This document shows, piece by piece, positions 764 through 24,641 of a stretch of 27,083 nucleotides of DNA. Both the position numbers and the translations under genes were made by a program. Position 1 is the first letter of the stretch, and each line of letters begins with the position of its first letter. The DNA is from Methanobrevibacter sp. (lineage in GTDB: Archaea; Methanobacteriota; Methanobacteria; Methanobacteriales; Methanobacteriaceae): the NCBI GenBank assembly GCA_009776495.1, contig WRNS01000001.1:1-27083 (forward strand), in the 5' to 3' direction. The notes below the pieces were generated by a model that saw only the letters and a list, made by a program, of their open reading frames with translations, was not told where the DNA came from and ran no database searches.

Positions 764-1348
764 ATGGATATTGATGAAAAATTAAATAGAATTGAAGGAG
801 TTATTAAATCAAAATCTTTTAAAAAGGGTACAGGTCTTGGAAACGATATTCCTTACTATATTTTTGACTATAATCCTATCCATGAAATAAAAGTAAGAGA
901 TCATGTGGAATTTTTAAAAAATAAAATTAACAATAACTCTATTTCAGATTTTAAAATTGATGAATTTGATTTATATGATATTACAATAGAAATACTTAAA
1001 AACAAAAAGTATTTAGAAAAAGTTTTCGAATTTGAAGAAAAAAAAGGAAGAGAAAAAACTCAAAGTAGTGTAAACAAACTCCTTAGAATTAGTAGTGAGA
1101 ATTCAAATCTTATTGTAAATCACATAAAAACGAATATTTCAGAGGATTCAATTGTTTTCATCACGGGTGTTGGAAAGATTTATCCTATAATTAGATCTCA
1201 TGATGTATTAAATAATTTACATCATCATATTGATGAAATTCCCGTAGTATTGTTTTTTCCAGGAAGATATTCTGGTAATGAATTAGAATTATTCAATACA
1301 ATAAAAGATAATAACTATTATCGAGCTTTTCCATTAATTACTGATTAA
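764..1348 (+). CDS. brxB: BREX protein BrxB (DUF1788 family)
   Basis: 194 aa; motifs GLGNDIPYYIFDY, FITGVGKIYPIIRSH.VLNNL, PVVLFFPG.Y, DNNYYRAF typical of DUF1788; lies between brxA and brxC. Confidence 0.93.
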   Translation: MDIDEKLNRIEGVIKSKSFKKGTGLGNDIPYYIFDYNPIHEIKVRDHVEFLKNKINNNSISDFKIDEFDLYDITIEILKNKKYLEKVFEFEEKKGREKTQSSVNKLLRISSENSNLIVNHIKTNISEDSIVFITGVGKIYPIIRSHDVLNNLHHHIDEIPVVLFFPGRYSGNELELFNTIKDNNYYRAFPLITD

Positions 1349-6353: not shown

Positions 6354-9300
6354 TTATAATTTCTTCAGTAGATTGATTTTTTTGTTTTCTACTTCTACAT
6401 TTTGGAATAGCTCATAATTATGTTTCACTCCGTCATCTAAGTCAATTTCTATCTGCTGATTAGCTACATGTCCAAGTGCTTTATCATATTTACGAGTTTC
6501 TTCAAGTTGTTTTTTAAGCTTAATGTTTTCTTTTGTTGCTTGAAATTTTTCATTAGAATTAGTAGAATTAATGATTACTTGTTCATTATGGTTAATTTGT
6601 TCTTCAAATGCTTTTTGGAGAGGATGAAGATAGTCTATTCTAACTCGAGCAACTGTATCCGGCGTATATCTATGCATGTATATCAGTGCTTTAAACCCAT
6701 CTTCTTTTCCACTATCAAATTGCCAATAGATAGGTGTTTTTTTAAACATCCGTTTATGGTCCTTGAAAAAGTCTTTTAAGAAGTATTTCCGGATTGTTTC
6801 TCTGTAAGTTTTTCCTTTATTTCCTAAAGCATTAGCTATGAATTTTATGTTTTCTTCTAAAGTTTCTTCTGAGAAGGTTACTTTTAGGAATTCTGTGAAT
6901 TTGCTTAGGATATCGTCCTCGAAAAATTCAGTGTCTGAAATAGGGACTATGTTATCTTCATCTGGGAGGAATTTTGAGTATTTTGAAGGGTTGTAATCCC
7001 CTCCAGCATATACAAGTCCTTCTTGGTCTAAGGAGTAACGACCAAACATGCAACCTGTGAAATATGAAAATAAGCTTTTAATATCTCTTTCTATTTCTGC
7101 GATTCTAAGCGAAGTGTCACTTCCATCCATTTCAACGATTGAATTTTTATTTAAGCCATATATTTCAATAAATATTTCATTCAATTTCTTTTCATTTTCC
7201 ATTAGCTGATAATAAATCGATTCACAATGATTATTCCATTTTTCAAAAGCATTCGATAAAAATTTTTCATTTTGTTGTAAGAATGGGTGTTTTTCAAAAT
7301 TCCAACTAGTTTCAAAACTATCCCAATCCATTTTTGATAATTTAATATTTTCTTTGACAATATCTCTTACTATATCAACAGAGTTTTCCGAATAAATTAT
7401 GGGTAATGATGATATATGACCTACTTCATAATTTAAAGTTGGAGAAATAAGCCCCAATATTTTACTACAAACTTGCGAGTTGAGAAAGCCTAAGAGATAC
7501 ATTTTATCCTCATCTGTAAATATTGAACATCCTGCGACATCAAACAAAAATCCACTCTGGAAAAATCTAAATGCAATATTTCCACTTGAAATTTTTGACC
7601 AACTAAGACTTTCTTTAAAATAACATGAAATACTTTTAATGGTTCTAGTGACTGAATTATATTTTGATTTTGCATATTCTTTAAGTTCTTTTCCATCTTT
7701 TTCATAGTTGATTAAATATTCTTGATTTCCATACCATTTTCTATAATTTCCTCCTTTGTTATAAGGAAACCATTTTTTACCTGAGTTCATAGCATGAGTA
7801 GCATCTGTCATTCCAAAACCAACTTTACAAATATCAACTTCATACCACATTTTTAAGAATCGATTGTTATCACCAGTAGAAAGTCCTTGTCGTGCAAGTG
7901 CAAATGAAGAGAAATTTTTCCCGTTTTTGAAAGCATTTATAAGCTGAGGTCCAGCCCAGTAGGCTATCGGATTTCCTGGAATAGCTGAAACCTTATCTAT
8001 TGCTGTGATAAAAATGTTTTCACGTTTCAAAAAAGATGTTTCTTTTAATTTTTGAGAATTTTTATCAGTCACTCTTATAAAAGAGGATAAGTATTCTTTT
8101 AAATTAGTTTTTCTAATGGAAAATGCTGTAGTTTGGACAACTTCTCCACCAATTTCTTCAAATGCTCTTGCACCTAAATGAACCATATTAATTATAGTAT
8201 TTTTCAGGATTTTTTCTCTTAGTTTTTCATAGCTTGATAAAAACATGAAGCTTTGCTGAGTAATCATGGAATAAAAACCGTTTTCTCTTGTAATGGAATC
8301 ACACTTTTCCATAAAAACTGAAAATAAGTCTCGTTTAGAATCTACGAAGTTTTTTTTCAAATAATTTGATAATTTACTACTCATTCCACTATTACCCATA
8401 TATGGAGGATTAGTGACGACAATTTCGTATTTTTGAGATAAAATATCAGCTTGTTTCAGCAAAGGATTGATTTTAATTTTTATTTCGTCAAAAAATCCAA
8501 TTTCTATTAAAGAACTTTGAGAAAGTGTAGTTAATTTATTTTTAAGAATTTTAAAATCAACATTTTTAACATCTAGTAAAGAACCGAAATATTTAGCATC
8601 TATGAAAACTTCTCTAACATATTTTAAATTTCTTTTTAAATCATGATTTTCTTTAGATAAGTAATCAATCAAATCTGGACTAATATCATTGCTTTCTTGT
8701 ATTGATGCTAAATTTAATTCTATATTTTCTTTAAAAATCTGTCTATGAAATGCTCTTGCTTTCATAAAAACTGCAAAATATGCTAGTTGGTATGCTCTGT
8801 CATCTATATCCAAACCAAAAAGATTATTTTTCAATATGCAAATACTTGCATCTTTTTTGTTATACCCTTGAGAAAGATATATTTGCATAAGAACATCGAA
8901 AAAATAGATTAAAACATGCCCACTACCCATACAAGGATCTATTACTTTAATATCTTCTATATTAATGTTTTCATTTTCTTTTTCAATTGATTTTAATTGT
9001 TTTTGAACTTCAGGTTTTTGTTCAGCTTCATCAATATAATATTCCCAATTCTTTTTGATTTCGTCATCAGGATGTGTTTCAACCCACAATCTGCCCAAAC
9101 TGTTTTCAACCATATATTTAACAATCCAATCTGGAGTAAACAGTTGTGTAGCTGCTGGTATACGTTCTTTAGTAATTTTAACTCTCTTCTTCAACTGTGC
9201 AAATGTTTCATCTTTTAGCTCTGCATTGTAATATTGGTATAGCCACCCAATTATTTCCACTTGATCTTTAAAATCTTCTTCAGAAATCAATTTTATTAAC

Positions 9301-9896
9301 TGTCTTACTATACCTTCTTCTTTGGTAAAGGAAATAGAAAGCAATAGTTCAAAATAGTCTTTAGTTTTTTCAAATAGTTCTGGGAGAATTGAATTTAATT
9401 CATTACATTGTTTAATAAATAAAAATTGAAACAATTCATCTAGTTTATTTTCATTTTTAAGAGAATATATAGTTTCAATTTCTTTTCCATCAAAATCTAA
9501 ACCAATGTTAGGAGCTTCTGTTATTATGTCGGGTTCTAACTTATTTTCAGTTTCACTCGAAAGAATTCTTATTTTCATTGGAAGATAATTATTAACCTCC
9601 ATAAATCGAATAGCTATTATTCTGTTAAACCAAGTGTATGCAACTTCTTCAACTACATTATCATAACCTTTTTCTTCAATTGCGATTATCAAATTTTTTC
9701 TCTGTTGAATTTCTTTTTTATACAATATTTTTGGATAAGAACTGCCAATATCATATATTTCTCTTTCAGAATCTTTTTGAGAAGGGTTTAAAATGTTATT
9801 TTCATTTATTCCAATTAAATTCATTTGATAGGCAACATCTTCTCTTAATTTATTTCTTGCGTTCATAGCAAAAGTTTTTATCGATTTCTTATTCAT
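6354..9896 (-). CDS. pglX: BREX adenine methyltransferase PglX (BrxX), full-length, cassette A currently attached
   Basis: 1180 aa from ATG 9896 (the ORF track extends to 9914); AATQLFTPDWIV, motif I IDPCMGSGH, motif IV NPPY, C-terminal PIYW.FDSGK and IDLDDGVK.NY motifs. Confidence 0.95.
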   Translation of the reverse strand: MNKKSIKTFAMNARNKLREDVAYQMNLIGINENNILNPSQKDSEREIYDIGSSYPKILYKKEIQQRKNLIIAIEEKGYDNVVEEVAYTWFNRIIAIRFMEVNNYLPMKIRILSSETENKLEPDIITEAPNIGLDFDGKEIETIYSLKNENKLDELFQFLFIKQCNELNSILPELFEKTKDYFELLLSISFTKEEGIVRQLIKLISEEDFKDQVEIIGWLYQYYNAELKDETFAQLKKRVKITKERIPAATQLFTPDWIVKYMVENSLGRLWVETHPDDEIKKNWEYYIDEAEQKPEVQKQLKSIEKENENINIEDIKVIDPCMGSGHVLIYFFDVLMQIYLSQGYNKKDASICILKNNLFGLDIDDRAYQLAYFAVFMKARAFHRQIFKENIELNLASIQESNDISPDLIDYLSKENHDLKRNLKYVREVFIDAKYFGSLLDVKNVDFKILKNKLTTLSQSSLIEIGFFDEIKIKINPLLKQADILSQKYEIVVTNPPYMGNSGMSSKLSNYLKKNFVDSKRDLFSVFMEKCDSITRENGFYSMITQQSFMFLSSYEKLREKILKNTIINMVHLGARAFEEIGGEVVQTTAFSIRKTNLKEYLSSFIRVTDKNSQKLKETSFLKRENIFITAIDKVSAIPGNPIAYWAGPQLINAFKNGKNFSSFALARQGLSTGDNNRFLKMWYEVDICKVGFGMTDATHAMNSGKKWFPYNKGGNYRKWYGNQEYLINYEKDGKELKEYAKSKYNSVTRTIKSISCYFKESLSWSKISSGNIAFRFFQSGFLFDVAGCSIFTDEDKMYLLGFLNSQVCSKILGLISPTLNYEVGHISSLPIIYSENSVDIVRDIVKENIKLSKMDWDSFETSWNFEKHPFLQQNEKFLSNAFEKWNNHCESIYYQLMENEKKLNEIFIEIYGLNKNSIVEMDGSDTSLRIAEIERDIKSLFSYFTGCMFGRYSLDQEGLVYAGGDYNPSKYSKFLPDEDNIVPISDTEFFEDDILSKFTEFLKVTFSEETLEENIKFIANALGNKGKTYRETIRKYFLKDFFKDHKRMFKKTPIYWQFDSGKEDGFKALIYMHRYTPDTVARVRIDYLHPLQKAFEEQINHNEQVIINSTNSNEKFQATKENIKLKKQLEETRKYDKALGHVANQQIEIDLDDGVKHNYELFQNVEVENKKINLLKKL
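8562..8576 (-). repeat. Inverted repeat, left copy (CTAGATGTTAAAAAT on minus strand), inside pglX encoding LDVKN
   Basis: Plus strand ATTTTTAACATCTAG is the exact reverse complement of 9962-9976. Confidence 0.9.
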
Positions 9897-9945
9897 ACAC
9901 AAACATCTTCCCATAATAGTTTAAATAAAAATTCTGTTATTAAAT

Positions 9946-9976: not shown

Positions 9977-12211
9977 ATAAATTACGAAAATATTTCAAAT
10001 TTAGTACTTACTTCCATGAAAAAAACGACACTTACCGATGCAATACTTTCGGATGAAATAAATGATAAATTATTTCCTCTAATAAAGCAAGCAGAATTAT
10101 TATCTAAAAAATATGATGTTCTTGTGACAAATCCACCATATATGGGAATAAGAGGTATGAATAAAAAATTATCTGACTTCTTGAAAACAAACTTTAAAGG
10201 TAGTAAAAGTGACTTTTTTTCGGCTTTTGTAGAAAAATCATTTTCTTTCTGCAAATCCACAGGATATTTAGGGTTTTTGACACCATATGTTTGGATGTTT
10301 ATTAGTTCTTATGGGGATCTAAGAGAAAACATTATGAAAAATAAAACCATAACATCTTTAATACAATTTGAGTATAGTGCATTTGAAGAGGCTACAGTTC
10401 CCATATGTACTTTCACATTAAAAAACACTCATGAAAATATCTTTGGAAAATACATAAAATTATCTGATTTCCGAGGAGGAATGGAAGTTCAGGAAGCAAA
10501 AACCTTAGAGGCAATAACTAATCTTGATTGTGATTATCTATTTTGTTTTAATCAATTAAATTTTAAAAATATTCCTGGAAATCCTATAGCATTTTGGGCT
10601 GGACCTCAGCTTATAAATGCTTTCAAAAACGGGAAAAAACTATCTGAACTTGCAGATATTAAACAAGGACTTGCTACGGGAGATAACAAGAAATTTATAA
10701 GATTTTGGCATGAGGTAGATATTAATAAAATAGGGTTTGATTATAATCCAGAAAATGCTAAACAAAGTATCGAAAAATGGTTTCCGTATAATAAAGGAGG
10801 AAAATATAGGAAATGGTATGGGAATAATGAATTTATAGTGGATTATGAAGATAATGGAAAAAATATTTTGGACTACAAACAAAAAAAATTAAAAAAAGGA
10901 TTAATCGAAAAAAAGAATAGTGGATGTTGGAATAGTAATTTTTACTTCAGAGAAAGTCTCAGTTGGTCAAAAATTTCAAGTGGAAATATTGCATTTAGGT
11001 TTTTTCAAAATGGATTTTTGTTTGATGTTGCTGGTTGTTCTATATTTACCGAAGAAGATAAGCTGTATCTTTTAGGTTTTCTCAATTCACAAGTTTGTGG
11101 GAATATATTAGGACTTATCTCTCCAACCTTAAACTATGAAGTAGGGCATATTTCATCATTACCTATTATTTTTTCAGAAGATAAACTTCAAACAATCAAA
11201 GGGATAGTTAAAAAGAATATTGATTTATCAAAAGATGAATGGGATAATTTTGAAACTAGCTGGAATTTTAAAAAGCATCCTATTATCCAAACAGATAAAA
11301 AATTAATATCTGAAGCTTATGAAGATTGGGATGAAATTAGCAAAACTAATTTTTATAACTTAATGGAAAATGAAAAGCAACTAAACCAAATATTCTTTGA
11401 AATATATGATTTAAGAAATGATTCTTATCCTGAAATTGATGAAAGTAACATTGCACTCAGAAAAGCAGATTTAGAAAGGGATATAAAAAGTTTTCTATCA
11501 TATTTCCTTGGTTGTTTGATGGGTAGATACTCTTTAAATGATGAAGGGGTTATTTTTTCTGGAGGCGAATATAATCCCTCAAAATACTCAAAATTCATCC
11601 CAGATGAAGATAACATCGTCCCTATTTTAGACACAGAATACTTTGAAGATGACATCATAAAACAATTCACAGAATTCCTAAAAGTAACCTTCTCAGAAGA
11701 AACCTTAGAAGAAAACATCAAATTCATAGCTAACGCCTTAGGAAACAAAGGAAAAACTTACCGAGAAACTATCAGAAAATACTTCTTAACTGACTTTTAC
11801 AAAGATCATGTTAAAACTTACAAAAAAACGCCTATCTACTGGTTGTTTGATAGTGGTAAGGAAAATGGGTTTAAGGCTTTAATTTATCTTCACAGATACA
11901 CACCAGATACTGTTGCAAGGATAAGAACAGATTATCTCCATAAAACTCAAAAAGCAATAGAAACTTCAATAGCTAACAATGAACAAATAATACTTAATTC
12001 TACTAACCAAAAAGAGAAAAACCAAGCAACAAAAGATAACACAAAACTTAAAAAACAATTAGATGAAACAATAAAATATGATGAAGCTTTAGCTCACATA
12101 GCTAACAAACAAATTGAATTAGATTTAGATGATGGTGTTAAAGTAAATTATGCTAAATTCCAAGGAGTTGAAGTTGGAAATAAAAAAATCGATTTACTAA
12201 AAAAGATTTAA
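9962..12211 (+). CDS. pglX: Headless pglX C-terminal cassette B (motif IV plus target-recognition and C-terminal regions); ORF track starts at internal ATG 10016
   Basis: Open frame from the repeat (LDVKNINYENIS...) to the stop at 12211; has NPPY but lacks motif I and the first ~440 aa; colinear with the C-terminal 740 aa of the full gene; an in-frame TAA at 9941-9943 with no start codon before the repeat. Confidence 0.9.
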   Translation, partial: LDVKNINYENISNLVLTSMKKTTLTDAILSDEINDKLFPLIKQAELLSKKYDVLVTNPPYMGIRGMNKKLSDFLKTNFKGSKSDFFSAFVEKSFSFCKSTGYLGFLTPYVWMFISSYGDLRENIMKNKTITSLIQFEYSAFEEATVPICTFTLKNTHENIFGKYIKLSDFRGGMEVQEAKTLEAITNLDCDYLFCFNQLNFKNIPGNPIAFWAGPQLINAFKNGKKLSELADIKQGLATGDNKKFIRFWHEVDINKIGFDYNPENAKQSIEKWFPYNKGGKYRKWYGNNEFIVDYEDNGKNILDYKQKKLKKGLIEKKNSGCWNSNFYFRESLSWSKISSGNIAFRFFQNGFLFDVAGCSIFTEEDKLYLLGFLNSQVCGNILGLISPTLNYEVGHISSLPIIFSEDKLQTIKGIVKKNIDLSKDEWDNFETSWNFKKHPIIQTDKKLISEAYEDWDEISKTNFYNLMENEKQLNQIFFEIYDLRNDSYPEIDESNIALRKADLERDIKSFLSYFLGCLMGRYSLNDEGVIFSGGEYNPSKYSKFIPDEDNIVPILDTEYFEDDIIKQFTEFLKVTFSEETLEENIKFIANALGNKGKTYRETIRKYFLTDFYKDHVKTYKKTPIYWLFDSGKENGFKALIYLHRYTPDTVARIRTDYLHKTQKAIETSIANNEQIILNSTNQKEKNQATKDNTKLKKQLDETIKYDEALAHIANKQIELDLDDGVKVNYAKFQGVEVGNKKIDLLKKI

Positions 12212-12316: not shown

Positions 12317-12565
12317 ATGGGTGAAACAAGTAATCTTTATAAAGGTTTTCAAACTGTGGTTCCTTCTAAAATTAGGAAAAAACTTAATTTAGACTTGGAT
12401 TATGTTTTAGAATGGAGTATTAATGAAAATAATAAAGTTGAAATTGAGTTTCGCAAAAAAACAAACTTCATGGATTTAAATGGCTTAATTTCATCTAAAA
12501 AACTTAATGATTCTGTAAAACTTCAGCGAAAAATTAGACGTGGTGAAGATATTGATTTTCGTTGA
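12317..12565 (+). CDS. AbrB/MazE/SpoVT-family antitoxin (VapB-like)
   Basis: 82 aa; QTVVPSKIRKKLNL..DYVLEW pattern of swapped-hairpin DNA-binding domains; overlaps the downstream PIN gene. Confidence 0.8.
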   Translation: MGETSNLYKGFQTVVPSKIRKKLNLDLDYVLEWSINENNKVEIEFRKKTNFMDLNGLISSKKLNDSVKLQRKIRRGEDIDFR

Positions 12566-12941
12566 TACTTCTTTTATCATAGCATTTGTTAATGATAATG
12601 ATGGGAGACATAAAGAAGCTGTTGAATTAGCTAAAATAATAGAAAATGAAGAAAAAGTTGTTTCCTATATGATTATTGTAGAAGTACTAAATAATCTTAG
12701 AAAATTTAAAAAAGGAAAACTTAATCAGGAAGTTTATAGAATAATTAAAGATAACTTTAAAATTCAGGAAGAATCTATTAATCTTTATGATGATGCTTTA
12801 ATGACACAATTAAAGTATCATGGAAAATTAGGATTTGCTGATTGTGTCATAATTGAAACTATGAAAAGATTAAATTTAAATCAAATAGCTTCTTTTGATC
12901 AACATTTTGATGGAAAAGAGGGAATTGTTCGGATTTCATAG
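12552..12941 (+). CDS. vapC: PIN-domain ribonuclease toxin (VapC family)
   Basis: Likely TTG start at 12552 (MIFVDTSFIIA) 5 nt after a GGTGA SD; acidic PIN residues in VDTS, IVEV, FADC and SFDQHF. Confidence 0.88.
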   Translation: MIFVDTSFIIAFVNDNDGRHKEAVELAKIIENEEKVVSYMIIVEVLNNLRKFKKGKLNQEVYRIIKDNFKIQEESINLYDDALMTQLKYHGKLGFADCVIIETMKRLNLNQIASFDQHFDGKEGIVRIS

Positions 12942-12975
12942 TTTAGAAATTTTATAATCTTTAAGAGTGTATATA

Positions 12976-15477
12976 ATGAATCTTCAAAAAATACAGTCAA
13001 AGTTATTAGAATTATTTAGTACTGAAGAAAGGCAAATTGTCTTCTGGTATGATGATAAAGCTCAATTTCAAGAGGATATAGCTAATTTAGAATTAAATGA
13101 TATAAAAAAACATATTTTAACAGATTCCAACTGGATTCACACCAAATATCTTTTAGAAGTTGAGGATAAAGATAGTGACTATTTAATCTATGCTCCTTTT
13201 TCAAAACCTGATGATAGAGACAATAATCTCGCTGATACAGTATATTATTCAAAGGAGTTCTTTGCAGATAAGATATCTTTTCTTATGGAAGAGCTAAACA
13301 TTCCTAATAAGTTCAAATCTTCTTTTGAAAAGTACTCAAAATTTTTCAATTCACAAAAAAGAATTGATTCCTTTAAAGATTTTAACATAGAAAATTATAC
13401 TGATGAAAATATTATCATAGCTATTTTATCAGTTTTATGTAACCTTAATATACCTAACTTTGATGAGGTATTAAAAGAGTTATTAACCGAAGAAAATTTA
13501 AAAGAAAATAAACTCATAGAAAACTTTGAAAAGATGAATATTTTAAAGGATTTTTGGGATTTAGCTAAGAAAAAATATTCTTATATAGAGAAAAAACCTA
13601 ACTTAGAAAAGTTTTTCATCTCTTTAGTTTTAACGCATGCCTCAACTCAATTTGATGGAAACATCCCAAAAGCTTGGGAAAAACATATTTTAGAAAATAA
13701 AAATAACATTAAAGTTTTCATGAGTAATTTAATGAGTAATTCTAATTATAAAATTAAAAATCACACTTATCAAGAAATGTATGATATTAATGCAAAAAAA
13801 GTAGAGATTTTATTTAAAAACTCACTATCTAGAATTCCAGTAGATAGCTATAAAAACTGTGATACTTTTGAAATATTCGATATTAATATTATGGAATATA
13901 TAGCTGAATTATTAGTTAGTAATCAAGAATATAATCCTCATTTTAAGGAGTTAATCGAAAATAGGATAAAAACTCATTTTTATAAAAATTTCCTCAATGA
14001 ATACCATGTTTTAAAATGGGCTAATTTTTTAATAAAAAATATTAATCTGTTTACAAAAGAGTCTAGACCAAATTCTCCTGATGAAATAATAGCTAAATAT
14101 TCTAAAGAATGGTTTTTAATAGATAAAGCTTATAGAAAATTTTATTTTTATTATGCAAAAGTGAATGACAATTTTAAGGATTTAAGAGATTTAATTGAAA
14201 AAATGTATTCTAATAATTTTCTATATGACTTAGCTATTCACTGGGCTGAAAATTATAATCCTGATAAAAATTATATTTACCAAACTGATTTTTATAAAAA
14301 AGTAGTCTCTCCTAGAGTATCTCAGCATAGAACTGTTGTAATTATTTCAGATGCTTTGAGATATGAGTGTGGAGATGAGTTAAAAGACATACTTAATCAA
14401 GATGAACTTCGTGAAATTGACTTAAGTCCAATTATTTCAACGATACCATCTAACACTGAATTTGGTATGGCAGCATTACTTCCACATAATGATTTGTCTT
14501 TTCATGATAATTTATTAATTGATAATAATTCAACAAGGGGCTTGGATAATAGGCAAAAAATATTAAATAATTATTCAAGAGAAGCTTTAGCTGTTAACTA
14601 TGAAACATTAATGGATATGCATCATGAAGAGTTAAGAACATTCTTTAAAGATTATCAACTTATTTATGTCTATCATAATCAAATAGATGCACGAGGAGAT
14701 CATCTACCAAGTCAAAATGAAGTATTTATTGCCTCTGATGAAGCTATTAAGGAGATAGAAAAATTAATTAAAAGATTAACTAGTTATACTGGAACTTCTA
14801 ATTTCATAGTCACTGCAGACCATGGTTTTATTTATAGAAATGATTCTTTAAAAGAAAGTGATAAAATTGATATAAAGGATGGAGAAATATTCTCTAAAAA
14901 TAAAAGATTTTTATTATCAAACAATGAATTAAATATAAATGGAACATTTTCTCATAAAATACCTTATTTAAATAATGATTTATTTGTCACAGTTCCTAAA
15001 GGAATGGATATATTTAAAACTCAAGGTGGTGGTTTAAATTATGTTCATGGAGGAGCATCACTTCAAGAAATAATAATACCTCTACTTAAAGTCCGAGTAA
15101 AAAGTACTAAAAGAGAGAGTTCACAAGTTAAATTAAATCTAATTGCACCAATAAATAGAAGAATAACAAACTTAGAAACTCATTTAACTTTTGCTCAAAG
15201 CGATAAAATTTCTGATAAAGTTTTACCATTACAAGCATTAATTTATATTGAAGATGAGTATCAAAATAAAATTTCCAATGAAATCATAATTCATGCTAAT
15301 AAAACAGATGATGATCCAAAACTCTTGGAATTTAGAGAAAAAATCACAGTTAGAAATAAACAATATGATAAATCTAAAAATTATTATCTTGTAATAGAAG
15401 ATGAAGATAAAAATACGGAAATTGATAGATACGAATTTGTTATTGACTTAGCATTTGCAGATGAATTTGATTTCTAA
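12976..15477 (+). CDS. pglZ: BREX-1 alkaline-phosphatase-fold protein PglZ (BrxZ)
   Basis: About 833 aa from ATG 12976; IVFWYD, SDALRYE, IPSNTEFGMAALLP, YHNQIDARG, TADHGF, YVHGGASLQE motifs. Confidence 0.95.
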   Translation: MNLQKIQSKLLELFSTEERQIVFWYDDKAQFQEDIANLELNDIKKHILTDSNWIHTKYLLEVEDKDSDYLIYAPFSKPDDRDNNLADTVYYSKEFFADKISFLMEELNIPNKFKSSFEKYSKFFNSQKRIDSFKDFNIENYTDENIIIAILSVLCNLNIPNFDEVLKELLTEENLKENKLIENFEKMNILKDFWDLAKKKYSYIEKKPNLEKFFISLVLTHASTQFDGNIPKAWEKHILENKNNIKVFMSNLMSNSNYKIKNHTYQEMYDINAKKVEILFKNSLSRIPVDSYKNCDTFEIFDINIMEYIAELLVSNQEYNPHFKELIENRIKTHFYKNFLNEYHVLKWANFLIKNINLFTKESRPNSPDEIIAKYSKEWFLIDKAYRKFYFYYAKVNDNFKDLRDLIEKMYSNNFLYDLAIHWAENYNPDKNYIYQTDFYKKVVSPRVSQHRTVVIISDALRYECGDELKDILNQDELREIDLSPIISTIPSNTEFGMAALLPHNDLSFHDNLLIDNNSTRGLDNRQKILNNYSREALAVNYETLMDMHHEELRTFFKDYQLIYVYHNQIDARGDHLPSQNEVFIASDEAIKEIEKLIKRLTSYTGTSNFIVTADHGFIYRNDSLKESDKIDIKDGEIFSKNKRFLLSNNELNINGTFSHKIPYLNNDLFVTVPKGMDIFKTQGGGLNYVHGGASLQEIIIPLLKVRVKSTKRESSQVKLNLIAPINRRITNLETHLTFAQSDKISDKVLPLQALIYIEDEYQNKISNEIIIHANKTDDDPKLLEFREKITVRNKQYDKSKNYYLVIEDEDKNTEIDRYEFVIDLAFADEFDF

Positions 15478-15809: not shown

Positions 15810-18800
15810 ATGCCTAATAATGATGAAACATTCTACTTTTTAAAGGAAGATTTTCCTAAAATTGAAAAAATATGCATGACTGTAGAGGAAAATATCTATA
15901 CTAATCCTGTTTATGCAGTAATGGAAGGGAGAAAAGCAACAGAAAAAATACTTGATGAAGTTATAGATAAAGAAAGTCTTCAAATGTTAAAAAACAGTAA
16001 TTTAAATGAAAAAATCAACGAAATTAACAGTTTAAGCATTTTTTCCAAAGCAGGTTATGTTTTCAGAGCATTTGATTATAATAGAAAATTGGGGAACATA
16101 GCTGCACATCATGAAGTTCATAGTGAAATCACTACAGCTCTCAGAGTTCATGAAAATTTATTCACTATCGCCAAATGGTTTCATGATAAATATTTGGATA
16201 AATATGAAATAGGTGAATATAAAAATCCAATTCCTGAAAACCTAAAAAGTAAAAACAAATTTCTTGAAGAAGATATTTCTATATTGGATAATGATCAGAA
16301 TTATGAAGATTCACAAAACAATAAACATGATTATAAGAATTTGAGTTCTGAAAGTGATACTAACACTAATAAAATTAATGAAAATAGAACAAAAATAAGA
16401 AAAGATTCTTTTCCTGAGAAAACTTCATATACTCAAAGAAATACTAAGAAAATAAAATCATTTAATTTTAATGGAAATGAATATGTGGTAAGGAACTCTA
16501 AAGATCTTCTTTTACAATTATTGAGTATTTTATATAATTCAGAAAATGATTTTGATAAAGTTTTTCAGCTTAAAGGTAGAAATAAACCTTATTTTTCAAA
16601 AGATCCTGAAGTTTTAAGGTCTGCTAAATTAATCAAAGGTACAAACATTTATGCTGAAACAAATAGAAGCACTGAAAATATCATTAATTTTTCAAAAAAA
16701 TTATTGAATCAATTTAATTATGCACCTGAAACTTTAAAAATAACTTTTTATGATGATGTTTCTATAGATGAAGATAATCTTTTTTTGAAAAATAGAGGCT
16801 ATGGAAAAGAATTTTCAAGCAAACCATCCCTTAAGTTGGATAGCCATAAGAGTACAGAATCTAAAATTGATAATTCCAAAAATATTCCTAAAAAGAAAGA
16901 AGAGAATGAAAATCTAGATTATTATAAAATTACCATGAAAAATCTGAAAGGTTGGAACAAGGCAGTTTTTGATAAAATCACATTATTAAATTCTGAATTT
17001 TTCACTTATCAAAATCTTCTTGTTTTTATTCCAGATTTTCAAGAAATGTTTCCTAATAATTCTGCGATTGAATCAACAATTAGATTTACACTACAAAGAT
17101 TAAGAGATTTAGGTTTAATAGATTTTTTATCAAGGGGAAATTATAAAAATAAAGTGTTTTGTTACTTGCAATCATCAATCAATGAAAGAAAATATGAAAA
17201 TCCTATTCTGGAAGTTGCAGACAGTGAAAACAAATTTCTTGAAGAAGATGTTTCCATAATGGAGGATAATAATATAAATAAAGAAAAATCATTGAACAAT
17301 GGTTTTTCCGAAAATGGATATGAAAATTCGTCGGAAGAGATTTTTGAGCCTGAAATTTCTTATTTTAATAAGTCTAAAGATTTTTTAATTTCTAAAGGTG
17401 ATATAATTAATGTAAATGATACTGAGGATAAATATAACTTAAATGAAGCAACTGAATTAAATTCAAAGTTAAATAATCACTTTCTAGGAAAAGTAGTTAG
17501 AAAGGATTTAACAAAGAAAATAAAAGAAGGAGCCAATGTTCCAGTTTATGTTTTAGAATATTTACTTGGAAAGTATGCTACTGGTGTTGATGAACATCAA
17601 ATTCAAAAAGGTCTTGAAAAGGTTAAAAATATACTATCAGACAACTTTGTAAGACCTGATGAAGCTCAAAAAGTTATCTCTAAAATAAGAGAAATTGGTA
17701 GTTTTACTGTAATTGATAATGTTTCAGTAAAGTTAAATTATCATACTGATAATTATGAAGCAGAATTTTCTAATTTAGGCTTAAAAGGAGTTCCAATAGC
17801 TAAAAAGTTTCCAAAACAATACGAACGTTTGTTAGGAGGAAATATTTGGTGTATGATAAATTTTGAATATTATTTTGATGAGGCAGATCCAAAAAGAAAC
17901 CCTTTTATCATAAATAACTTAAGTCCAATACAGATGCCTAATTTAGATTTAGAGGAAATTTTAAATGCTAGAGAAAATTTTAGTAAAGGAGAATGGATTG
18001 ATATTCTTTTAAGATCTTGTGGTATGGAACCTAGTCAGCTAACTGAAAGAGTTAAATGGTTGCTCATTACAAGACTTGTTCCTTTAGTTGAAAATAACTT
18101 TAATCTCTGTGAATTAGGTCCAAGAAGTACTGGAAAATCTCATATATATAAAGAAATATCTCCTAATTCTATTTTAGTTTCTGGAGGTCAGACAACTGTA
18201 GCTAATCTTTTCTATAATATGTCCACTAAACTCGTTGGTCTTGTTGGTATGTGGGATTGTGTAGCTTTTGATGAAGTAGCTGGAATTAAATTTAGTGATG
18301 CTGATGGCGTAGCTATTATGAAAGACTATATGGCTTCAGGGTCTTTTTCTCGAGGAAAAGAAAAGAAAAATGCTTTAGCCTCAATGGTTTTTGTAGGAAA
18401 CATAAATCAAAGTGTGGATTATTTACTTAAAACATCAAACTTATTTACACCATTCCCTGGTGAAATTGCAAAGGATAGTGCATTTTTTGATCGTATCCAT
18501 TGTTATATTCCTGGATGGGAAATTCCGAAATTCAACCCAGAACATTTCACTAATGATTATGGATTCATTACAGATTATTTTGCAGAATTCATGCGAGAAA
18601 TGAGAAAAAGATCTTTCAGTGGTTCTTATCTGGAATATTTTAAATTAGGTCGTGATTTAAATCAAAGAGATACTATTGCAGTTAAAAAAATGGTCTCTGG
18701 CTTGATAAAACTCATTTATCCTAATGGAAAATATGATAAAGAAGATATTCGTGAACTTTTAATTCTATCTTTAGAATCCCGTAGAAGAGTAAAAGAGCAG

Positions 18801-19442
18801 TTAAAAAGGATTGCTGGCTTAGAATTTTTCGATGTTAATTTTTCATTCATTGATAATGAAACAGATAAAGAAGAAAGAGTAGGTGTTAAAGAACAAAGCA
18901 AAGGCGAATTAATATTTGAAGGATCAACAGGACCAAACCATTATAATATTTCAACTGATAAAACATCTACAGAAGTCATTGAAAATTCAGAACATAATTT
19001 AGAATCTGAACCAATTAGTTCTACTTTTTCTAAAAATTTAGAATCATTAAAAATTTATGAAAGTCAGATTCATGAACTGAAAAATCTATATGAAAACAAA
19101 GAAAAAATTGCTCGTGATTTAATCGAAAAATGTTTTTCTCCACCACAAATGTCTTATGATAGATTCATAGATGAACTAGATAGTTATAATATACTTTTTT
19201 ATAATCAAGCAGAATCAGCATTGAAAATCATTGAGGCAAATGTAGGATACACACCAAAAGTTGATGACGAGCTTAAAAAAAGATTGAATACACTAAAATC
19301 ATTTGTAGAAAAAATCGACGAATTGAACATTGAATTAGCTATTAAATTAAGTAATTCTAGTGAGGAATCTTATTCTGGTGAAATAGAAGATTTGTTGGAG
19401 GATATGCAAAAGCTTGTCGATTCTGTGAAAGAATATGATTAA
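15810..19442 (+). CDS. brxL: Multidomain BrxL fusion: DUF4145/HEPN-like + SeqA-C-like + DpnI-wH-like + BrxL AAA+ core + non-Lon helical tail
   Basis: BrxL core at about aa 550-1038 (GKVVRKDLTKKIKEGANVPVYVLEYLLG, Walker A GPRSTGKS, VAFDEVAG, RRRVKEQL); the N- and C-terminal extensions are described in the findings. Confidence 0.88.
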   Translation: MPNNDETFYFLKEDFPKIEKICMTVEENIYTNPVYAVMEGRKATEKILDEVIDKESLQMLKNSNLNEKINEINSLSIFSKAGYVFRAFDYNRKLGNIAAHHEVHSEITTALRVHENLFTIAKWFHDKYLDKYEIGEYKNPIPENLKSKNKFLEEDISILDNDQNYEDSQNNKHDYKNLSSESDTNTNKINENRTKIRKDSFPEKTSYTQRNTKKIKSFNFNGNEYVVRNSKDLLLQLLSILYNSENDFDKVFQLKGRNKPYFSKDPEVLRSAKLIKGTNIYAETNRSTENIINFSKKLLNQFNYAPETLKITFYDDVSIDEDNLFLKNRGYGKEFSSKPSLKLDSHKSTESKIDNSKNIPKKKEENENLDYYKITMKNLKGWNKAVFDKITLLNSEFFTYQNLLVFIPDFQEMFPNNSAIESTIRFTLQRLRDLGLIDFLSRGNYKNKVFCYLQSSINERKYENPILEVADSENKFLEEDVSIMEDNNINKEKSLNNGFSENGYENSSEEIFEPEISYFNKSKDFLISKGDIINVNDTEDKYNLNEATELNSKLNNHFLGKVVRKDLTKKIKEGANVPVYVLEYLLGKYATGVDEHQIQKGLEKVKNILSDNFVRPDEAQKVISKIREIGSFTVIDNVSVKLNYHTDNYEAEFSNLGLKGVPIAKKFPKQYERLLGGNIWCMINFEYYFDEADPKRNPFIINNLSPIQMPNLDLEEILNARENFSKGEWIDILLRSCGMEPSQLTERVKWLLITRLVPLVENNFNLCELGPRSTGKSHIYKEISPNSILVSGGQTTVANLFYNMSTKLVGLVGMWDCVAFDEVAGIKFSDADGVAIMKDYMASGSFSRGKEKKNALASMVFVGNINQSVDYLLKTSNLFTPFPGEIAKDSAFFDRIHCYIPGWEIPKFNPEHFTNDYGFITDYFAEFMREMRKRSFSGSYLEYFKLGRDLNQRDTIAVKKMVSGLIKLIYPNGKYDKEDIRELLILSLESRRRVKEQLKRIAGLEFFDVNFSFIDNETDKEERVGVKEQSKGELIFEGSTGPNHYNISTDKTSTEVIENSEHNLESEPISSTFSKNLESLKIYESQIHELKNLYENKEKIARDLIEKCFSPPQMSYDRFIDELDSYNILFYNQAESALKIIEANVGYTPKVDDELKKRLNTLKSFVEKIDELNIELAIKLSNSSEESYSGEIEDLLEDMQKLVDSVKEYD
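16252..16274 (+). repeat. Direct repeat copy 1 (AAAACAAATTTCTTGAAGAAGAT) in the brxL fusion
   Basis: Identical to 17227-17249; part of a longer imperfect repeat encoding Y(K/E)NPI(P/L)E...S(K/E)NKFLEED(I/V)SI. Confidence 0.85.
17227..17249 (+). repeat. Direct repeat copy 2 in the brxL fusion
   Basis: Identical to 16252-16274, 975 bp apart (325 codons, in frame). Confidence 0.85.
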
Positions 19443-19646
19443 AAGTTATTAATATTTGAATCTAAATTGATAAAAAAGAATAAATAATTATTCCAATTAC
19501 AATTATTAAAAGATTAATAAGAAATTGAAATATGATGATGATAAATATGATGAATATTAGATATATTGAATGATTATTTACAAAAACTAATGAAATCATG
19601 ATTAAAAAAGTAAGAAAAATTTAAAACTAAAATATGGGGCAATAAA

Positions 19647-20786
19647 ATGACTGATTTTTCACTTGATGTTAAAGAAATAGAAAAAGAAGTAGAAGATACT
19701 ATCCAAACTGTAGAAAAAGATTCGCAAAATCCTGAAATTCAAAAACAAGCTGAAAATAATGCTGTTGCAATTTTTAAAACTGATTTCGATAATCCAACTG
19801 AAAGACAAAATATTTTAAAACCTTTAGATGACTTTGGACTTTCTGCAATATCTAGGTCTGCATCAAGAAATAAGCTTTTAGCCACTAGATTCGCTGATTT
19901 TTCCAAAGGAGGAGAGGATGCAGGAGATGTTGGAGAAAAATTATCTGAGTTAAATATGCAAATGAAAGATTTAGATCCTAGTATGCTCGATTTTGCTAAA
20001 AAAGGTTTTTTAGGAAACTTATTTAATCCAATAAGAAAATATTTTAACAGATATCAGAAAGCAGAAACTGCTATTGCAAATATTATAAAATCTCTGGATA
20101 TTGGTAGCAGAACATTACAGAATGACAATACAACCCTCCTTGCTGAAGAAGATCATTTAAGAGATTTAACAAAGAAACTTATTGCTGACATTGAATTGGG
20201 TAAGATGATGGATGAATCCATCGAAGCTCAAATTCGTAAAGCTGAGCTTGAAGAGGTTGAGGAAGCTAAAATTACATTTGTTCGTGAAGAAATATTGTTC
20301 CCACTCAGGCAAAGGATAATGGACATGCAACAGATGATAGTTACAAATCAACAAGGTATTGTGTCCTTAAATGTAATCAGGCGAAATAATAAAGAGCTTA
20401 TTCGAGGAGTTAGTCGTGCTAAAAATGTTACAGTAACTGCTCTAAGAACGGGTGTGATGGTTGCAAGTGCATTGTACAATCAAAAGATAGTTATTAAAAA
20501 AATTCAGATTCTTAATGAAAATACAGAGCACATAATCGAATCCACATCCAGAATGTTGCGTGAACAAGGAAGTGAAATACAAAAAACTAGTATGGAAACA
20601 ATGATTTCTCCAGAAGTTCTTAAAACGTCTTTTGTTAATGCTATTGCTGCAATAGATGATATAAGTAAATTTAAAGAACAATCTCTCCCTAAAATGCAGG
20701 AAACTATCAATCTATTTTATGAAATGGCTCAAGAAGGCCAAGAAGTCGTTGATAGAATTGAGATTGAAGGTGTTGGTCCTAGATAA
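19647..20786 (+). CDS. telA: Toxic anion resistance protein (TelA/KlaA family)
   Basis: 379 aa helical protein; DLDPS, NPIRKYF..YQ.AETAI, IRRNNKELIRGV.RA..VTV.AL...VMVA.AL.NQK.V motifs typical of TelA. Confidence 0.88.
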   Translation: MTDFSLDVKEIEKEVEDTIQTVEKDSQNPEIQKQAENNAVAIFKTDFDNPTERQNILKPLDDFGLSAISRSASRNKLLATRFADFSKGGEDAGDVGEKLSELNMQMKDLDPSMLDFAKKGFLGNLFNPIRKYFNRYQKAETAIANIIKSLDIGSRTLQNDNTTLLAEEDHLRDLTKKLIADIELGKMMDESIEAQIRKAELEEVEEAKITFVREEILFPLRQRIMDMQQMIVTNQQGIVSLNVIRRNNKELIRGVSRAKNVTVTALRTGVMVASALYNQKIVIKKIQILNENTEHIIESTSRMLREQGSEIQKTSMETMISPEVLKTSFVNAIAAIDDISKFKEQSLPKMQETINLFYEMAQEGQEVVDRIEIEGVGPR

Positions 20787-21716: not shown

Positions 21717-22955
21717 ATGATTAAAAGAGAATTATATTTAAAAAAAATCAGGTCTTTAATAGGTAAAGACATTATAAAGGTTTTAACTGGAATTAGGAGA
21801 TGTGGGAAGTCTTCTATGTTAAAATTAATCATTGATGAATTAATAGAGGAAGGAATTAATAGAGAGAACATAATTTTAATTAACTTTGAATCTGCAAAAT
21901 ATATGGATATAGACTCTTCAGCTAAATTAAACAAATTAATTAAAAATTTAATATGTGATTTAAAAGGAACTATCTATCTATTCTTTGATGAAATACAAAA
22001 TGTTAAAAATTGGGAAAAATTAATAAATAGCTATAGGATAGATTTAGATGCAGAAATATTTATTACAGGTTCTAATGCTAATTTACTTTCAGGAGAATTA
22101 GCTACTCTTATAGCTGGAAGATATATTGAAATAAAAATCTACCCTTTCTCCTTTAAAGAATCATTAAAATTAAAAAAAGAGTATGACTCAAAAAAACATG
22201 GTCTGAAAAAGTATGACTCAAAAAAACATGATCTTAAAAAATTTTTCTTAGAATATTTAAAATATGGAGGTATGCCTTTAGTACTTCAATTGAATCCAAA
22301 TGAAAAAATAGATTACTTAAGAGACCTTTACAATTCTATCATTCTAAAAGATATTGTATATAGGAATAAGATTCGAGAAGTGGATTTATTTGATAAATTA
22401 ATTAAATTTTTAATGGATAATATTGGTCATACATTTTCTGCAAAAAGTATTTCAAAATTTTTCAAAAGTGAAAATAGGATAGTTTCACGAGATACTATCT
22501 ATAATTATTTGATATTTCTTCAAGATGCATGTTTAATACATAAAGTACAAAGAGAAGATTTAATCGGAAAAAAAATATTGAAAATACATGAAAAATATTA
22601 TTTCACTGATCATGGATTTAATGAAACAATAGCTGGAAAAAATACTGAAAATATAGCTCAAATCTTGGAAAATATTGTTTATATGGAATTTTTAAGACAT
22701 GGATATGAAATATATGTAGGAAAAATAAATAACTCTGAAATAGACTTTATATGTAAAAAATATGAAAGAACTATCTATGTTCAAGTATCTTATTTACTTG
22801 CCAGTAAAAAAACTGTTGAAAGGGAATTTAACTCTTTGTTAAAAATTAAAGATAACCATGAAAAGATAATTATTTCTATGGATGAAGTGAATTTCTCACA
22901 AAAAGGAATAAAACATTTAAATATAATAGATTTTTTAAAATCCAGTGATTTTTAA
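21717..22955 (+). CDS. AAA+ ATPase (AAA_14) with C-terminal DUF4143 domain
   Basis: 412 aa; Walker A GIRRCGKS, Walker B LFFDEIQ, ITGSNA, LAGRY, EIDFI and YVQVSY motifs. Confidence 0.9.
   Translation: MIKRELYLKKIRSLIGKDIIKVLTGIRRCGKSSMLKLIIDELIEEGINRENIILINFESAKYMDIDSSAKLNKLIKNLICDLKGTIYLFFDEIQNVKNWEKLINSYRIDLDAEIFITGSNANLLSGELATLIAGRYIEIKIYPFSFKESLKLKKEYDSKKHGLKKYDSKKHDLKKFFLEYLKYGGMPLVLQLNPNEKIDYLRDLYNSIILKDIVYRNKIREVDLFDKLIKFLMDNIGHTFSAKSISKFFKSENRIVSRDTIYNYLIFLQDACLIHKVQREDLIGKKILKIHEKYYFTDHGFNETIAGKNTENIAQILENIVYMEFLRHGYEIYVGKINNSEIDFICKKYERTIYVQVSYLLASKKTVEREFNSLLKIKDNHEKIIISMDEVNFSQKGIKHLNIIDFLKSSDF
22181..22240 (+). repeat. In-frame 30-bp tandem duplication inside the ATPase gene
   Basis: GTATGACTCAAAAAAACATGGTCTGAAAAA / GTATGACTCAAAAAAACATGATCTTAAAAA (2 mismatches), giving YDSKKHGLKK-YDSKKHDLKK. 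Confidence 0.9.
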
Positions 22956-23309: not shown

Positions 23310-24641
23310 ATGACAGCAGAAATAGCAATCTTAAACAAAAGTGCTGTAGTCTTAGCTGCAGATAGTGCAGGCACGATAGATTTAGGATTCAGAACACAAA
23401 TTGATAATTCAACTGATAAGCTTTTCATGCTTTCAAAAAAAGATCCTGTTGCCATAATGATTTATCAAAATTTATCTTTTGTAGGAGTTCCATTTGAAAC
23501 AATAATAAAAATGTATAGAAAAAAGTTATCAAACACAAGATTTAATACATTAAAAGAGTATTGTGATGATTTTTTAAAGTTTCTAATTTTTAATTTTAAA
23601 GGAAATGAAGAAGATCAAAAGTTAGATATTATAGCTAAATCTAGGAAACAAATTAAAGAGATATATGATTATAATCTTCTCTCATTAGAAAATTTCACAT
23701 CTGTTAAAAGATTTTTAGAGGAAGGAGGAGAGCTCACAGATGGCATATTTGAACCAAATTTTTTTGAATATAAAATAGATAAACAAATTGAGAATATTAA
23801 GAACAATATTTCAGATTCTTCAAAAAATTTTCCTAATGATTTATTTGTAGAAATACGCCAAAAGCATCGACAAACTATTAGAGGAGTAATTTCTACATTA
23901 AAACAAGAATTAAGTCATGAATCTTTTTTCAATGAAACACATGAAGATAAATTAATTGATTTAGCTTGTCTTTCTCTTTTGGAAAGTTATTCTGGAGTTG
24001 TTATATCTGGTTTTGGAAAAAATGATATTTTTCCTTCATTGGTTTCAACTACATTATACTCAATATATAATGATAAATTATATAAAATTGAAAATCAATC
24101 ATTCAATATAACTGAAGAAAATAATGCGGGAATTATTCCTTTCGCTCAAAAAGACATGGTAGAGACATTTTTAAACGGAGTTTCAAAGGATTTTTTAAAA
24201 GAAATAGAAGAATTCATTGAAAATAAAATTAAGGGATACTCTCAAATTATGAACTCTTCATTTGAAACCAGTGAGGGTAATGAAAAAACCATTGAAAAAC
24301 TAAATTATTTGAAACAAAAAATTGAAGATAGTTTTAGTACTTACAGTAAGGATTTCTTTGACAGTTATAATGAACTAATCTATAATGGTATTGAATCACA
24401 TATTGGTCCAATATTATTAGATATAATAAATTTACCTAAAAATGAAATGGCAGTATTAGCAGAATCATTAATTCATTTAATATCTTTAAAAAGAAAATTT
24501 TCATTAAATCAGGATGAAACAGTTGGTGGGAATATAGATGTTGCAATAATCTCTAAAGGAGATGGTTTTATTTGGGCAAATAGAAAACATTATTTTAATG
24601 CAGAACTTAACCCGCATTATATAAAAAACTATGGAAATTAA
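23310..24641 (+). CDS. Proteasome-beta/HslV-like N-terminal-threonine (Ntn) hydrolase with a large helical insertion
   Basis: Starts M-TAEIAILNKSAVVLAADS (Thr1, Asp17 after Met removal), Lys36 in TDKLF, C-terminal VGGNIDVAIISKGDG resembling the proteasome beta C-terminal strands. Confidence 0.7.
   Translation: MTAEIAILNKSAVVLAADSAGTIDLGFRTQIDNSTDKLFMLSKKDPVAIMIYQNLSFVGVPFETIIKMYRKKLSNTRFNTLKEYCDDFLKFLIFNFKGNEEDQKLDIIAKSRKQIKEIYDYNLLSLENFTSVKRFLEEGGELTDGIFEPNFFEYKIDKQIENIKNNISDSSKNFPNDLFVEIRQKHRQTIRGVISTLKQELSHESFFNETHEDKLIDLACLSLLESYSGVVISGFGKNDIFPSLVSTTLYSIYNDKLYKIENQSFNITEENNAGIIPFAQKDMVETFLNGVSKDFLKEIEEFIENKIKGYSQIMNSSFETSEGNEKTIEKLNYLKQKIEDSFSTYSKDFFDSYNELIYNGIESHIGPILLDIINLPKNEMAVLAESLIHLISLKRKFSLNQDETVGGNIDVAIISKGDGFIWANRKHYFNAELNPHYIKNYGN

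Follow-up and report, generated by a model that had tools for sequence, protein, structure and literature searches.

What does a protein of the bacteriophage exclusion (BREX) system gain from about 550 additional residues, and are these residues really part of it? The question is raised by the brxL gene of a 27,083-nt stretch of Methanobrevibacter sp. DNA (contig WRNS01000001.1 of assembly GCA_009776495.1; the window, below), which closes a complete type 1 BREX locus and encodes 1210 amino acids. To our knowledge, the mechanism by which BREX stops phages is not known, and of all its parts BrxL is the one whose function is least clear. The N-terminal extension consists of three added domains: a DUF4145/HEPN module, a domain resembling the C-terminal domain of SeqA (SeqA-C-like) and a DpnI-type winged helix. 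We find that the protein is a genuine and intact type 1 BREX BrxL, rebuilt by domain shuffling, and that its architecture may let BREX sense methylated DNA. A previous sequence-only reading of the window had proposed the same three domains; the coordinates that it gave within the open reading frame (ORF), among them those of the R-K-L-G-N-I-A-A-H motif, are exact, and all three segments match the expected folds in structural searches with Foldseek and VIA.

An intact BrxL on a sound contig

Behind the extension, both the BrxL_N domain and the BrxL ATPase exceed their curated cut-offs (Table 1). The NCBIfam model TIGR02688 scores 589 bits (cut-off 329) and the BrxL model TIGR02653 scores 818 bits (cut-off 628), but the latter is aligned over profile positions 2–504 of 675 only. 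Walker A (G-P-R-S-T-G-K-S, residues 770–777) and Walker B (V-A-F-D-E, residues 822–826) are intact, and the core is 72–81% identical to the BrxL of other Methanobacteriaceae, the highest value being reached with an ordinary BrxL of 698 residues; its conservation equals that of ordinary BrxL cores.

The window is the entire contig of a metagenome-assembled genome (MAG) of 1.53 Mb, 68.7% complete and with 27% GC; its host is Methanobrevibacter-like, the closest relatives being Methanobrevibacter and other Methanobacteriaceae. As this MAG is fragmented into 321 contigs, one might suspect an assembly chimera, i.e. a contig wrongly joining parts of different genes. This appears extremely improbable. 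The same ORF is found on a 44-kb ENA contig (ERZ27257302 k141_846840), where it encodes an identical protein; this contig differs from window positions 5810–27083 (21,274 nt) by 2 mismatches, so that two assemblies concur over 21 kb. The sole internal repeat, 74% identical with at most 23 nt of exact match, was judged too short for a false join, and the label k141_ in the ENA contig name suggests a far longer assembly word. Moreover every junction is in frame, the composition is uniform across the window, and the junction between HEPN module and BrxL is confirmed independently by P0002, a BrxL of 894 residues from a metagenome. The three-domain N-terminal architecture is real, to the extent that assemblies can tell.

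Two domains from families of methyl-adenine readers

The winged helix is recognized by Pfam as DpnI_C (PF17726; residues 380–446) with an E-value of 2e-15 in the whole protein and 9e-17 in the cut segment, that is 57–61.5 bits for a cut-off of 23; in a plain sequence search DpnI was the sole solved protein matched (4esj, E 2e-5). An AlphaFold2 (AF2) model of residues 195–460, built on a 55-row alignment, shows two well-folded domains with a predicted local distance difference test (pLDDT) of 85. When this model was compared with the PDB by Foldseek, DpnI occupied ranks 1–3 at about 30% identity, with a root-mean-square deviation (rmsd) of 0.6–2.2 Å (0.6–1.0 Å for 4kyw/4esj), and complexes of SeqA with hemimethylated DNA occupied ranks 4–8 (probability 1.0, rmsd about 2 Å over 86–90 residues, TM score 0.59–0.63 normalised to the target). 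Only generic winged helices ranked under these two. VIA, an aligner independent of Foldseek, again placed DpnI first (Z 11.6), SeqA being second and third (Z 11.2 and 9.9).

By sequence, the SeqA-C-like domain is more divergent. Pfam SeqA (PF03925) aligns with residues 234–308 of the cut segment (E 1e-4, 22.8 bits, 20.9–23.2 across scans), so that the domain alone misses the gathering cut-off of 25.5 bits. Its family speaks more clearly: a profile of 60 homologues of this middle module matches the solved SeqA C-domains of Vibrio cholerae (3sk7, E 1.4e-6) and Escherichia coli (1lrr, E 6e-4), and 49 of the 60 match Pfam SeqA individually. The SeqA-C and DpnI assignments of the sequence-only reading were therefore both borne out, by profile as well as by fold.

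The family of the SeqA-C-like domain is widespread and apparently undescribed. A HMMER search with residues 1–550 against 1.84 billion representatives returned 662 matches, most of them covering residues ~205–313; in these matches the domain measures about 110 residues, is usually C-terminal and often occurs in two or three tandem copies. Among the top matches scanned it commonly stands behind an HSDR_N nuclease domain of the PD-(D/E)XK type, and one such protein of Methanobrevibacter (P0009) has a C-domain that shares 62% identity with the domain of BrxL. SeqA domains are known to occur in restriction-linked fusions (PMC4738411), and we regard the HSDR_N–SeqA-C-like proteins as candidate restriction enzymes dependent on N6-methyladenine (m6A). 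The family is present in bacteria and archaea (P0005, P0009, P0011, P0012, P0016), HSDR_N preceding the domain in the first four; the gene of P0012, a bacterial member, lies isolated among housekeeping genes, with no methylase in its neighbourhood.

A HEPN module at the N-terminus

Residues 1–135 are, according to profiles and to the AF2 model, a HEPN-fold DUF4145 module fused to the N-terminus of BrxL. The Pfam score for DUF4145 (PF13643; cut-off 23.1 bits) lies below the cut-off when the whole protein is scanned (residues 32–104, E 2.8e-4, 21.3 bits) and passes it on the cut segment (E 6.5e-5, 23.4 bits); the N-terminus of the NCBIfam HsdR model PRK11448 aligns with residues 5–200 (E 2.6e-14). 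The model of residues 1–170 is an all-helical bundle (pLDDT 87). For such bundles, VIA Z-scores below ~13 can be generic according to the tool's own warning; the best match here, the HEPN structure 2hsb, reaches Z 13.8 (rmsd 2.7 Å, 119 of 126 residues), and below it stand some 20 more structures of the HEPN superfamily, including sacsin HEPN, HepT toxins, Csm6, AbiA and RnlA/LsoA. Foldseek also retrieved HEPN structures, but with weak E-values. The sequence-only reading had called this segment DUF4145, HEPN-like, and the fold supports it.

In an alignment of 25 sequences over residues 1–170, E45, R92, G95, N96, H100, Y137 and P140 are invariant. In the model, R92, N96 and H100 are found where the third long helix (82–100) ends, and E45 is found in the second (33–54); a survey of the HEPN superfamily locates the active site where the equivalents of R..GN...H and of E45 fall (PMC3710099). 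The spacing from R to H is 7 in BrxL versus 4–6 in the canonical motif (PMC3710099). DUF4145 figures in the same survey among the HEPN families, with fusions to both restriction endonucleases and helicases.

The module is not confined to this protein. P0002 carries it too, together with the linker, at 64% identity, and DptF homologues of related methanogens start with the same module at 61–64% identity. The module thus behaves as a swappable head on various defence NTPases. Three DptF homologues (P0003, P0004 and L018 802–3141) score above the TIGR03238 cut-off, and carry the linker in addition to the DUF4145/HEPN module.

Table 1. Features of the brxL gene and of the BREX locus (positions in the window; residues of the 1210-aa protein)
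Feature	Positions	Strand	Residues	Basis and remarks
brxL ORF	15810–19442	+	1210 aa	last gene of the BREX locus
DUF4145/HEPN-fold module	15810–16214	+	1–135	Pfam, NCBIfam, AF2, VIA
Motif R92-x2-G95-N96-x3-H100 (R-K-L-G-N-I-A-A-H)	16083–16109	+	92–100	invariant in family
Linker copy 1, upstream of cassette	16216–16309	+		overlaps the HEPN module at its conserved Y-x-N-P end
SeqA-C-like domain	16452–16748	+	215–313	family profile, Pfam, Foldseek, VIA
Disordered spacer between readers	16785–16868	+	326–353	pLDDT < 50 in the model of residues 195–460
DpnI-type winged helix	16893–17186	+	362–459	limits in model; Pfam core 16935–17147
Linker copy 2, downstream of cassette	17191–17284	+		direct repeat
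BrxL N-terminal DNA-binding domain (BrxL_N)	17478–17870	+	557–687	Pfam PF20442, E 5e-45, 153 bits
BrxL AAA+ ATPase (BrxL_ATPase)	17904–18845	+	699–1012	Pfam PF13337, E 1e-140, 468 bits
Helical tail	18942–19439	+	1045–1210	in place of the Lon-like domain
brxA	153–749			Pfam
brxB	764–1348			Pfam
brxC	1416–5000			Pfam
Tyrosine-recombinase-like gene	5117–6145			Pfam
pglX	6354–9914	−		Pfam
Headless pglX copy	10016–12211	+		Pfam; faces pglX
82-aa ORF, then PIN toxin gene	12317–12941			between pglX and pglZ; ORF without family match
pglZ	12967–15477			Pfam

The two readers form an inserted cassette

The two linker copies that flank the readers constitute a 94-nt direct repeat, 74% identical and with a longest common exact run of 23 nt, whose copies are spaced by 975 nt, i.e. 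325 codons, in frame. The 293 codons between them hold no stop in the reading frame, and 56 and 20 stops in the other frames, in DNA of 25% GC. P0002 has no reader cassette. Judged from sequence, and relative to P0002, the SeqA-C-like domain and the DpnI-type winged helix are best described as one discrete in-frame insertion of 975 nt into the linker behind the HEPN module.

The cassette was drawn from a local pool, because close relatives of both domains sit on other Methanobrevibacter-type proteins: in P0007, a TFIIB fusion of this type, a SeqA-C-like domain is followed immediately by DpnI_C, in the same order as in BrxL, and the domains of P0009 and P0005 (HSDR_N–SeqA-C) and of P0008 (three DpnI_C) are 45–62% identical to the respective domains of BrxL. 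Neither a donor copy of the cassette nor other copies of its modules were found elsewhere in the MAG, which is 69% complete.

Giant Methanobrevibacter-type proteins of 1100–1500 residues associate TFIIB repeats with DpnI_C winged helices (P0006, P0007, P0010 and L019 995–4609). DUF7226 is found in P0006, P0010 and L019, and sequence comparison reveals SeqA-C-like domains in all four. In genome G001 one such TFIIB protein is encoded 10 kb from a D12-class methylase. They could be transcription factors that respond to methylation, or else serve as a sensor in defence.

The C-terminal tail

The similarity to BrxL ends at about residue 1044. Pfam finds no Lon_C in the protein, nor is there any remnant of it in any frame of the window; a helical tail takes its place. 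Homologues of this tail, for which Pfam has no model, number more than 100 in the 250 family genomes, often two per genome. In the two loci inspected it corresponds to the C-terminal half of proteins of 297–324 residues, one of which has a zinc ribbon; the gene adjoins telA in G235 and lies about 600 bp from telA in G125. In the window too, telA is the next gene after brxL (tail–telA region, 18942–20786). Since the tail is the C-half of a telA-upstream gene in relatives, and since telA follows here, the right edge of the island has fused brxL to a resident gene. A look-up of the tail in the ESM Atlas gave no usable match. Pfam matches of the tail below threshold, such as Abi_C (E 0.15; 0.002 in one homologue), were not relied on.

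That the Lon-like domain is gone need not put BrxL out of action, because this domain only pairs rings and because C-termini vary naturally. In the structure of the Acinetobacter BrxL, the Lon-like domain does nothing but pair two rings tail to tail; the ring is formed, and DNA held, by the N-terminal and ATPase domains, and DNA enters the barrel at its poles, which is where the N-termini are located (PMC10164562). Furthermore a survey of 2913 taxa with a BrxL-bearing type 1 BREX designates the C-terminus as the variable part of BrxL: there may be a Lon domain, which is inactive, or (1030 cases) a nuclease of the HKD type, whereas type 4 has nothing there; type 4 BrxL functions without any C domain, and the HKD variants also are devoid of a Lon-like domain (PMC12839542).

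How unusual is this BrxL?

About 22 BrxL orthologues in the 250 genomes of the family all start at the equivalent of residues 512–548, with frames of ~680–720 residues. A frame of 1529 residues in G181, first taken for a second extended BrxL, is really an ordinary BrxL of 684 residues behind pglZ. Among the 120 closest BrxL listed from a collection of 5.8 billion proteins, only the 1210-residue BrxL has DpnI_C and no Lon_C; the homologue searches were read from their best 120 or 150 matches and are not exhaustive with regard to uniqueness. Five matches of 900–1500 residues among the top matches of the HMMER search were scanned with Pfam, and none has BrxL domains. A word-based search with residues 1–550 retrieved 4 proteins only and missed long relatives found by HMMER, so that its negative outcome is weak.

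In the literature, a BREX survey of 2026 reports HEPN only on DUF499 ATPases and no N-terminal additions to BrxL, SeqA and DUF4145 being absent from its text (PMC12839542); a search by terms turned up no publication in which BrxL is associated with the reader or HEPN domains. A second BrxL with the reader pair was thus found nowhere else in the databases and literature searched. The sequence-only reading, which knew of no BrxL with this architecture, stands as far as the reader pair is concerned; it leaves out that the HEPN–BrxL fusion taken alone is not unique, P0002 having it as well.

What the readers might do

The reading that we hold most likely, although with somewhat less than even confidence, is that the readers bring BrxL to DNA bearing adenine methylation within a fixed sequence, providing BREX with a type-IV-like arm against invaders whose DNA is so methylated. 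As BrxL N-termini sit at the barrel poles where DNA enters (PMC10164562), the readers would surround the DNA entrance, each of them being present six or seven times on the assembled ring. They could then tether or load BrxL onto adenine-methylated DNA, in a context that may be GATC-like although this is not proven, and BREX would thereby gain a modification-dependent, type-IV-like arm against invaders whose DNA carries this mark. Gathered by the assembled ring, the HEPN modules would be a candidate back-up RNase; this could be the role of the module by analogy with HEPN-DUF499 and with PrrC/RloC, the same module being found on DptF also. We favour the type-IV-like arm because winged-helix fusions are m6A restriction enzymes, because the SeqA-C-like family is mainly attached to nucleases and because P0012 has no methylase nearby. 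All characterised fusions of the DpnI-type winged helix are indeed m6A-dependent restriction enzymes, and fusions of this winged helix to an NTPase, paired with McrC, exist (PMC11037411).

Several observations weigh against this reading. The first are in the readers themselves. The residues E228/K229/R231/Q232/Q235 of the DpnI methyl pocket (PMC3424567) are S/T/R/F/Q in BrxL by alignment with 4esj, i.e. 2 of 5 retained; of the two loop asparagines of SeqA (PMC2691817), the equivalent of N150 is kept (E-T-N) and that of N152 is S, by profile alignment. This partial conservation may mean that the specificity for m6A or GATC has changed or been lost. The winged helix of P0007 retains all five pocket residues. 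The substitutions in BrxL weaken the case for a reading specific to GATC. From there one could propose that the two domains are anchors blind to methylation, or readers of another mark or sequence than m6A-GATC, the fusion merely increasing the affinity of BrxL for DNA; the DpnI motif for GATC/m6A is present in only ~10% of winged-helix fusions, the specificity of the remainder being unclear (PMC11037411). We nevertheless consider this unlikely: two unrelated folds, both of m6A-reader families, were gained as one cassette, both are met side by side again elsewhere among Methanobrevibacter proteins, and the equivalents of R231, Q235 and N150 are kept.

A second group of adverse observations concerns the methylation of the host. 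A D12-class methylase is present in 162 of 250 genomes of the family (65%), including one of the two other genomes of the same genus that were searched; none was found in the MAG, which is 69% complete, so that the gene may be missing from the assembly. GATC is under-represented across the MAG, with an observed/expected ratio (O/E) of 0.61, a depletion that fits a past GATC restriction-modification and hence possibly self-methylation. These facts lead to the opposite proposal, that of readers turned to self: a host enzyme of the Dam class would methylate the motif, and the readers would park BrxL on fully methylated host DNA through the winged helix and on new, hemimethylated host DNA through the SeqA-C-like domain, BrxL being either kept off self targets or held as a pool ready for unmethylated invader DNA. 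The established role of SeqA is precisely the binding of self hemimethylated DNA (PMC2691817); both types of reader on archaeal TFIIB fusions, one of them 10 kb from a D12 methylase in G001, suggest a reading of host DNA; and DpnI_C, encoded by only 7 of the 250 other family genomes, is accompanied by a D12 methylase in 5 of these 7. However this last proportion is no different from the background of 65% and is uninformative. Besides the absence of a D12 methylase from the MAG, incomplete as it is, the only PF01555 methylase of the MAG is below all equivalog cut-offs and no motif, GATC included, can be assigned to it; and the characterised winged-helix fusions target foreign methylated DNA (PMC11037411). 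A reading of self is, in our opinion, unlikely. As to nucleotide composition, GATC is the third most depleted four-base palindrome of the MAG, after CTAG (0.54) and CCGG (0.57).

A third group comprises signs of disorder in the gene: BrxL with the reader cassette is a singleton, the linker copies diverge at a ratio of nonsynonymous to synonymous rates (dN/dS) of ~1 over 33 codons, a ratio that gives no sign of selection on the linker, and the locus is rearranged otherwise too, the Lon-like domain having been lost by fusion to the neighbouring gene. The architecture could therefore be evolutionary debris, a chimeric BrxL of a rearranged locus, no longer defensive and with fusions devoid of adaptive role. 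We find this quite improbable. The ORF has remained open over 3.6 kb in DNA of 25% GC whose other frames are rich in stops, the core is 81% identical to BrxL of the working type with its Walker motifs intact, the invariant HEPN residues are retained, six of the six BREX genes are present, and BrxL C-termini vary naturally (PMC12839542).

Beyond the tethering or loading of BrxL on methylated DNA, which remains our preferred reading, a more elaborate version can be imagined, where BrxL would be the component that sets the place of BREX action on DNA and would load according to the state of methylation: the winged helix (full methylation) and the SeqA-C-like domain (hemimethylation) would distinguish resting from replicating DNA with foreign-type m6A, and the ring would pair the HEPN modules into an abortive RNase. 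We regard so complete a scenario as distinctly improbable; if true, one polypeptide would unite BREX with the sensing of type IV systems and with abortive infection. Ring loading by methylation, a HEPN cluster for abortive RNase activity and the type-IV-like arm had all been suggested by the sequence-only reading. The possibility that the readers track the motif of PglX was also considered and is unlikely, the specificity of pglX being switchable (inverted headless copy and recombinase) and the readers being fixed.

The surrounding locus

All six BREX genes were identified in the window by Pfam. The pglX segments 6354–7983 and 10570–12211 are inverted copies with 75% identity, beside the recombinase-like gene; together, pglX, its headless copy and the recombinase look like a specificity-switching shufflon. 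PglZ is reportedly a metal-dependent nuclease, according to the title and abstract of a preprint. The 82-aa ORF and the PIN gene form a VapBC-like arrangement, and such a pair occurs at the equivalent place in the BREX locus of P0002 (L021, 1407–2028), the comparison bearing on gene order. Downstream of telA lie a gene for an AAA_14/DUF4143 ATPase (21717–22955) and then a 443-aa ORF without family match (23310–24641); in a different sample from this series of studies, the HSDR_N–SeqA-C gene of P0009 likewise has an AAA_14/DUF4143 gene of similar kind in its vicinity.

Significance

A natural BrxL with HEPN and two independent domains of methyl-adenine-reader families points to BrxL as a DNA-engaging and targetable arm of BREX. 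The 1210-residue protein is a ready construct for asking whether DNA marks can redirect the loading of BrxL, whether one protein can unite BREX with modification-dependent restriction, and whether HEPN modules provide BREX with a fail-safe. In addition, the widespread and divergent family of SeqA-C-like domains, carried for the most part by nucleases and shuffled with the DpnI-type winged helix among Methanobrevibacter defence and TFIIB-fusion genes, adds to the still few candidates for m6A readers.

Comparison with known systems

One of the closest known proteins is P0002 (Logan SRR21023576), which shares the HEPN module and linker, a core 81% identical and the order 82-aa ORF/PIN–pglZ–brxL, but has no SeqA-C-like/DpnI cassette and retains Lon_C. 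The canonical type 1 BrxL, known from the Acinetobacter structure (PDB 8EMC; PMC10164562), likewise possesses the N-terminal DNA-binding domain and the MCM-like AAA+ ATPase, and as in canonical type 1 BREX brxL is the last gene in the series brxA–brxB–brxC–pglX–pglZ–brxL; the present BrxL departs from it by the ~550 additional N-terminal residues and by the unrelated helical tail that replaces the Lon-like domain.

With the enzymes built on the DpnI-type winged helix—DpnI, HhiV4I, and the fusions with HNH, with GIY-YIG or, in the form NTD–winged helix–NTPase accompanied by McrC, with an NTPase (PMC11037411)—this BrxL has in common the family of the winged helix and the principle of a reader fused to an effector, NTPases included. 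Here however the partner is BrxL and not a nuclease or a McrB-like GTPase, the pocket is partly kept, and a second reader of another fold is present. The latter is related to the SeqA C-domain of E. coli and V. cholerae (1lrr, 3fmt, 3sk7) by fold and homology, and retains the elements G-R-x-x-x-Y-F and T-N of the loop. It differs by the lack of the N-terminal oligomerisation domain of SeqA, by a serine at the equivalent of N152 and by its membership of a divergent, mostly HSDR_N-fused family.

As regards HEPN, the BREX-related HEPN-DUF499 and PrrC/RloC (PMC3710099, PMC12839542) similarly join HEPN to the NTPase of a restriction-like system, for which a back-up suicidal RNase has been proposed; BrxL has another HEPN family, DUF4145 with R-x7-H, and a different ATPase. 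Finally, some BREX systems are accompanied by a separate type IV enzyme of the GmrSD/BrxU type (cited in PMC12839542), and in this way also have a modification-dependent arm. In the present case the presumed sensor is part of BrxL, which carries no dedicated nuclease domain. Of the hallmarks of type IV, BrxL displays the reader-family domains and no DNase domain; pglZ is adjacent, and PglX is a methylase with a different and switchable specificity.

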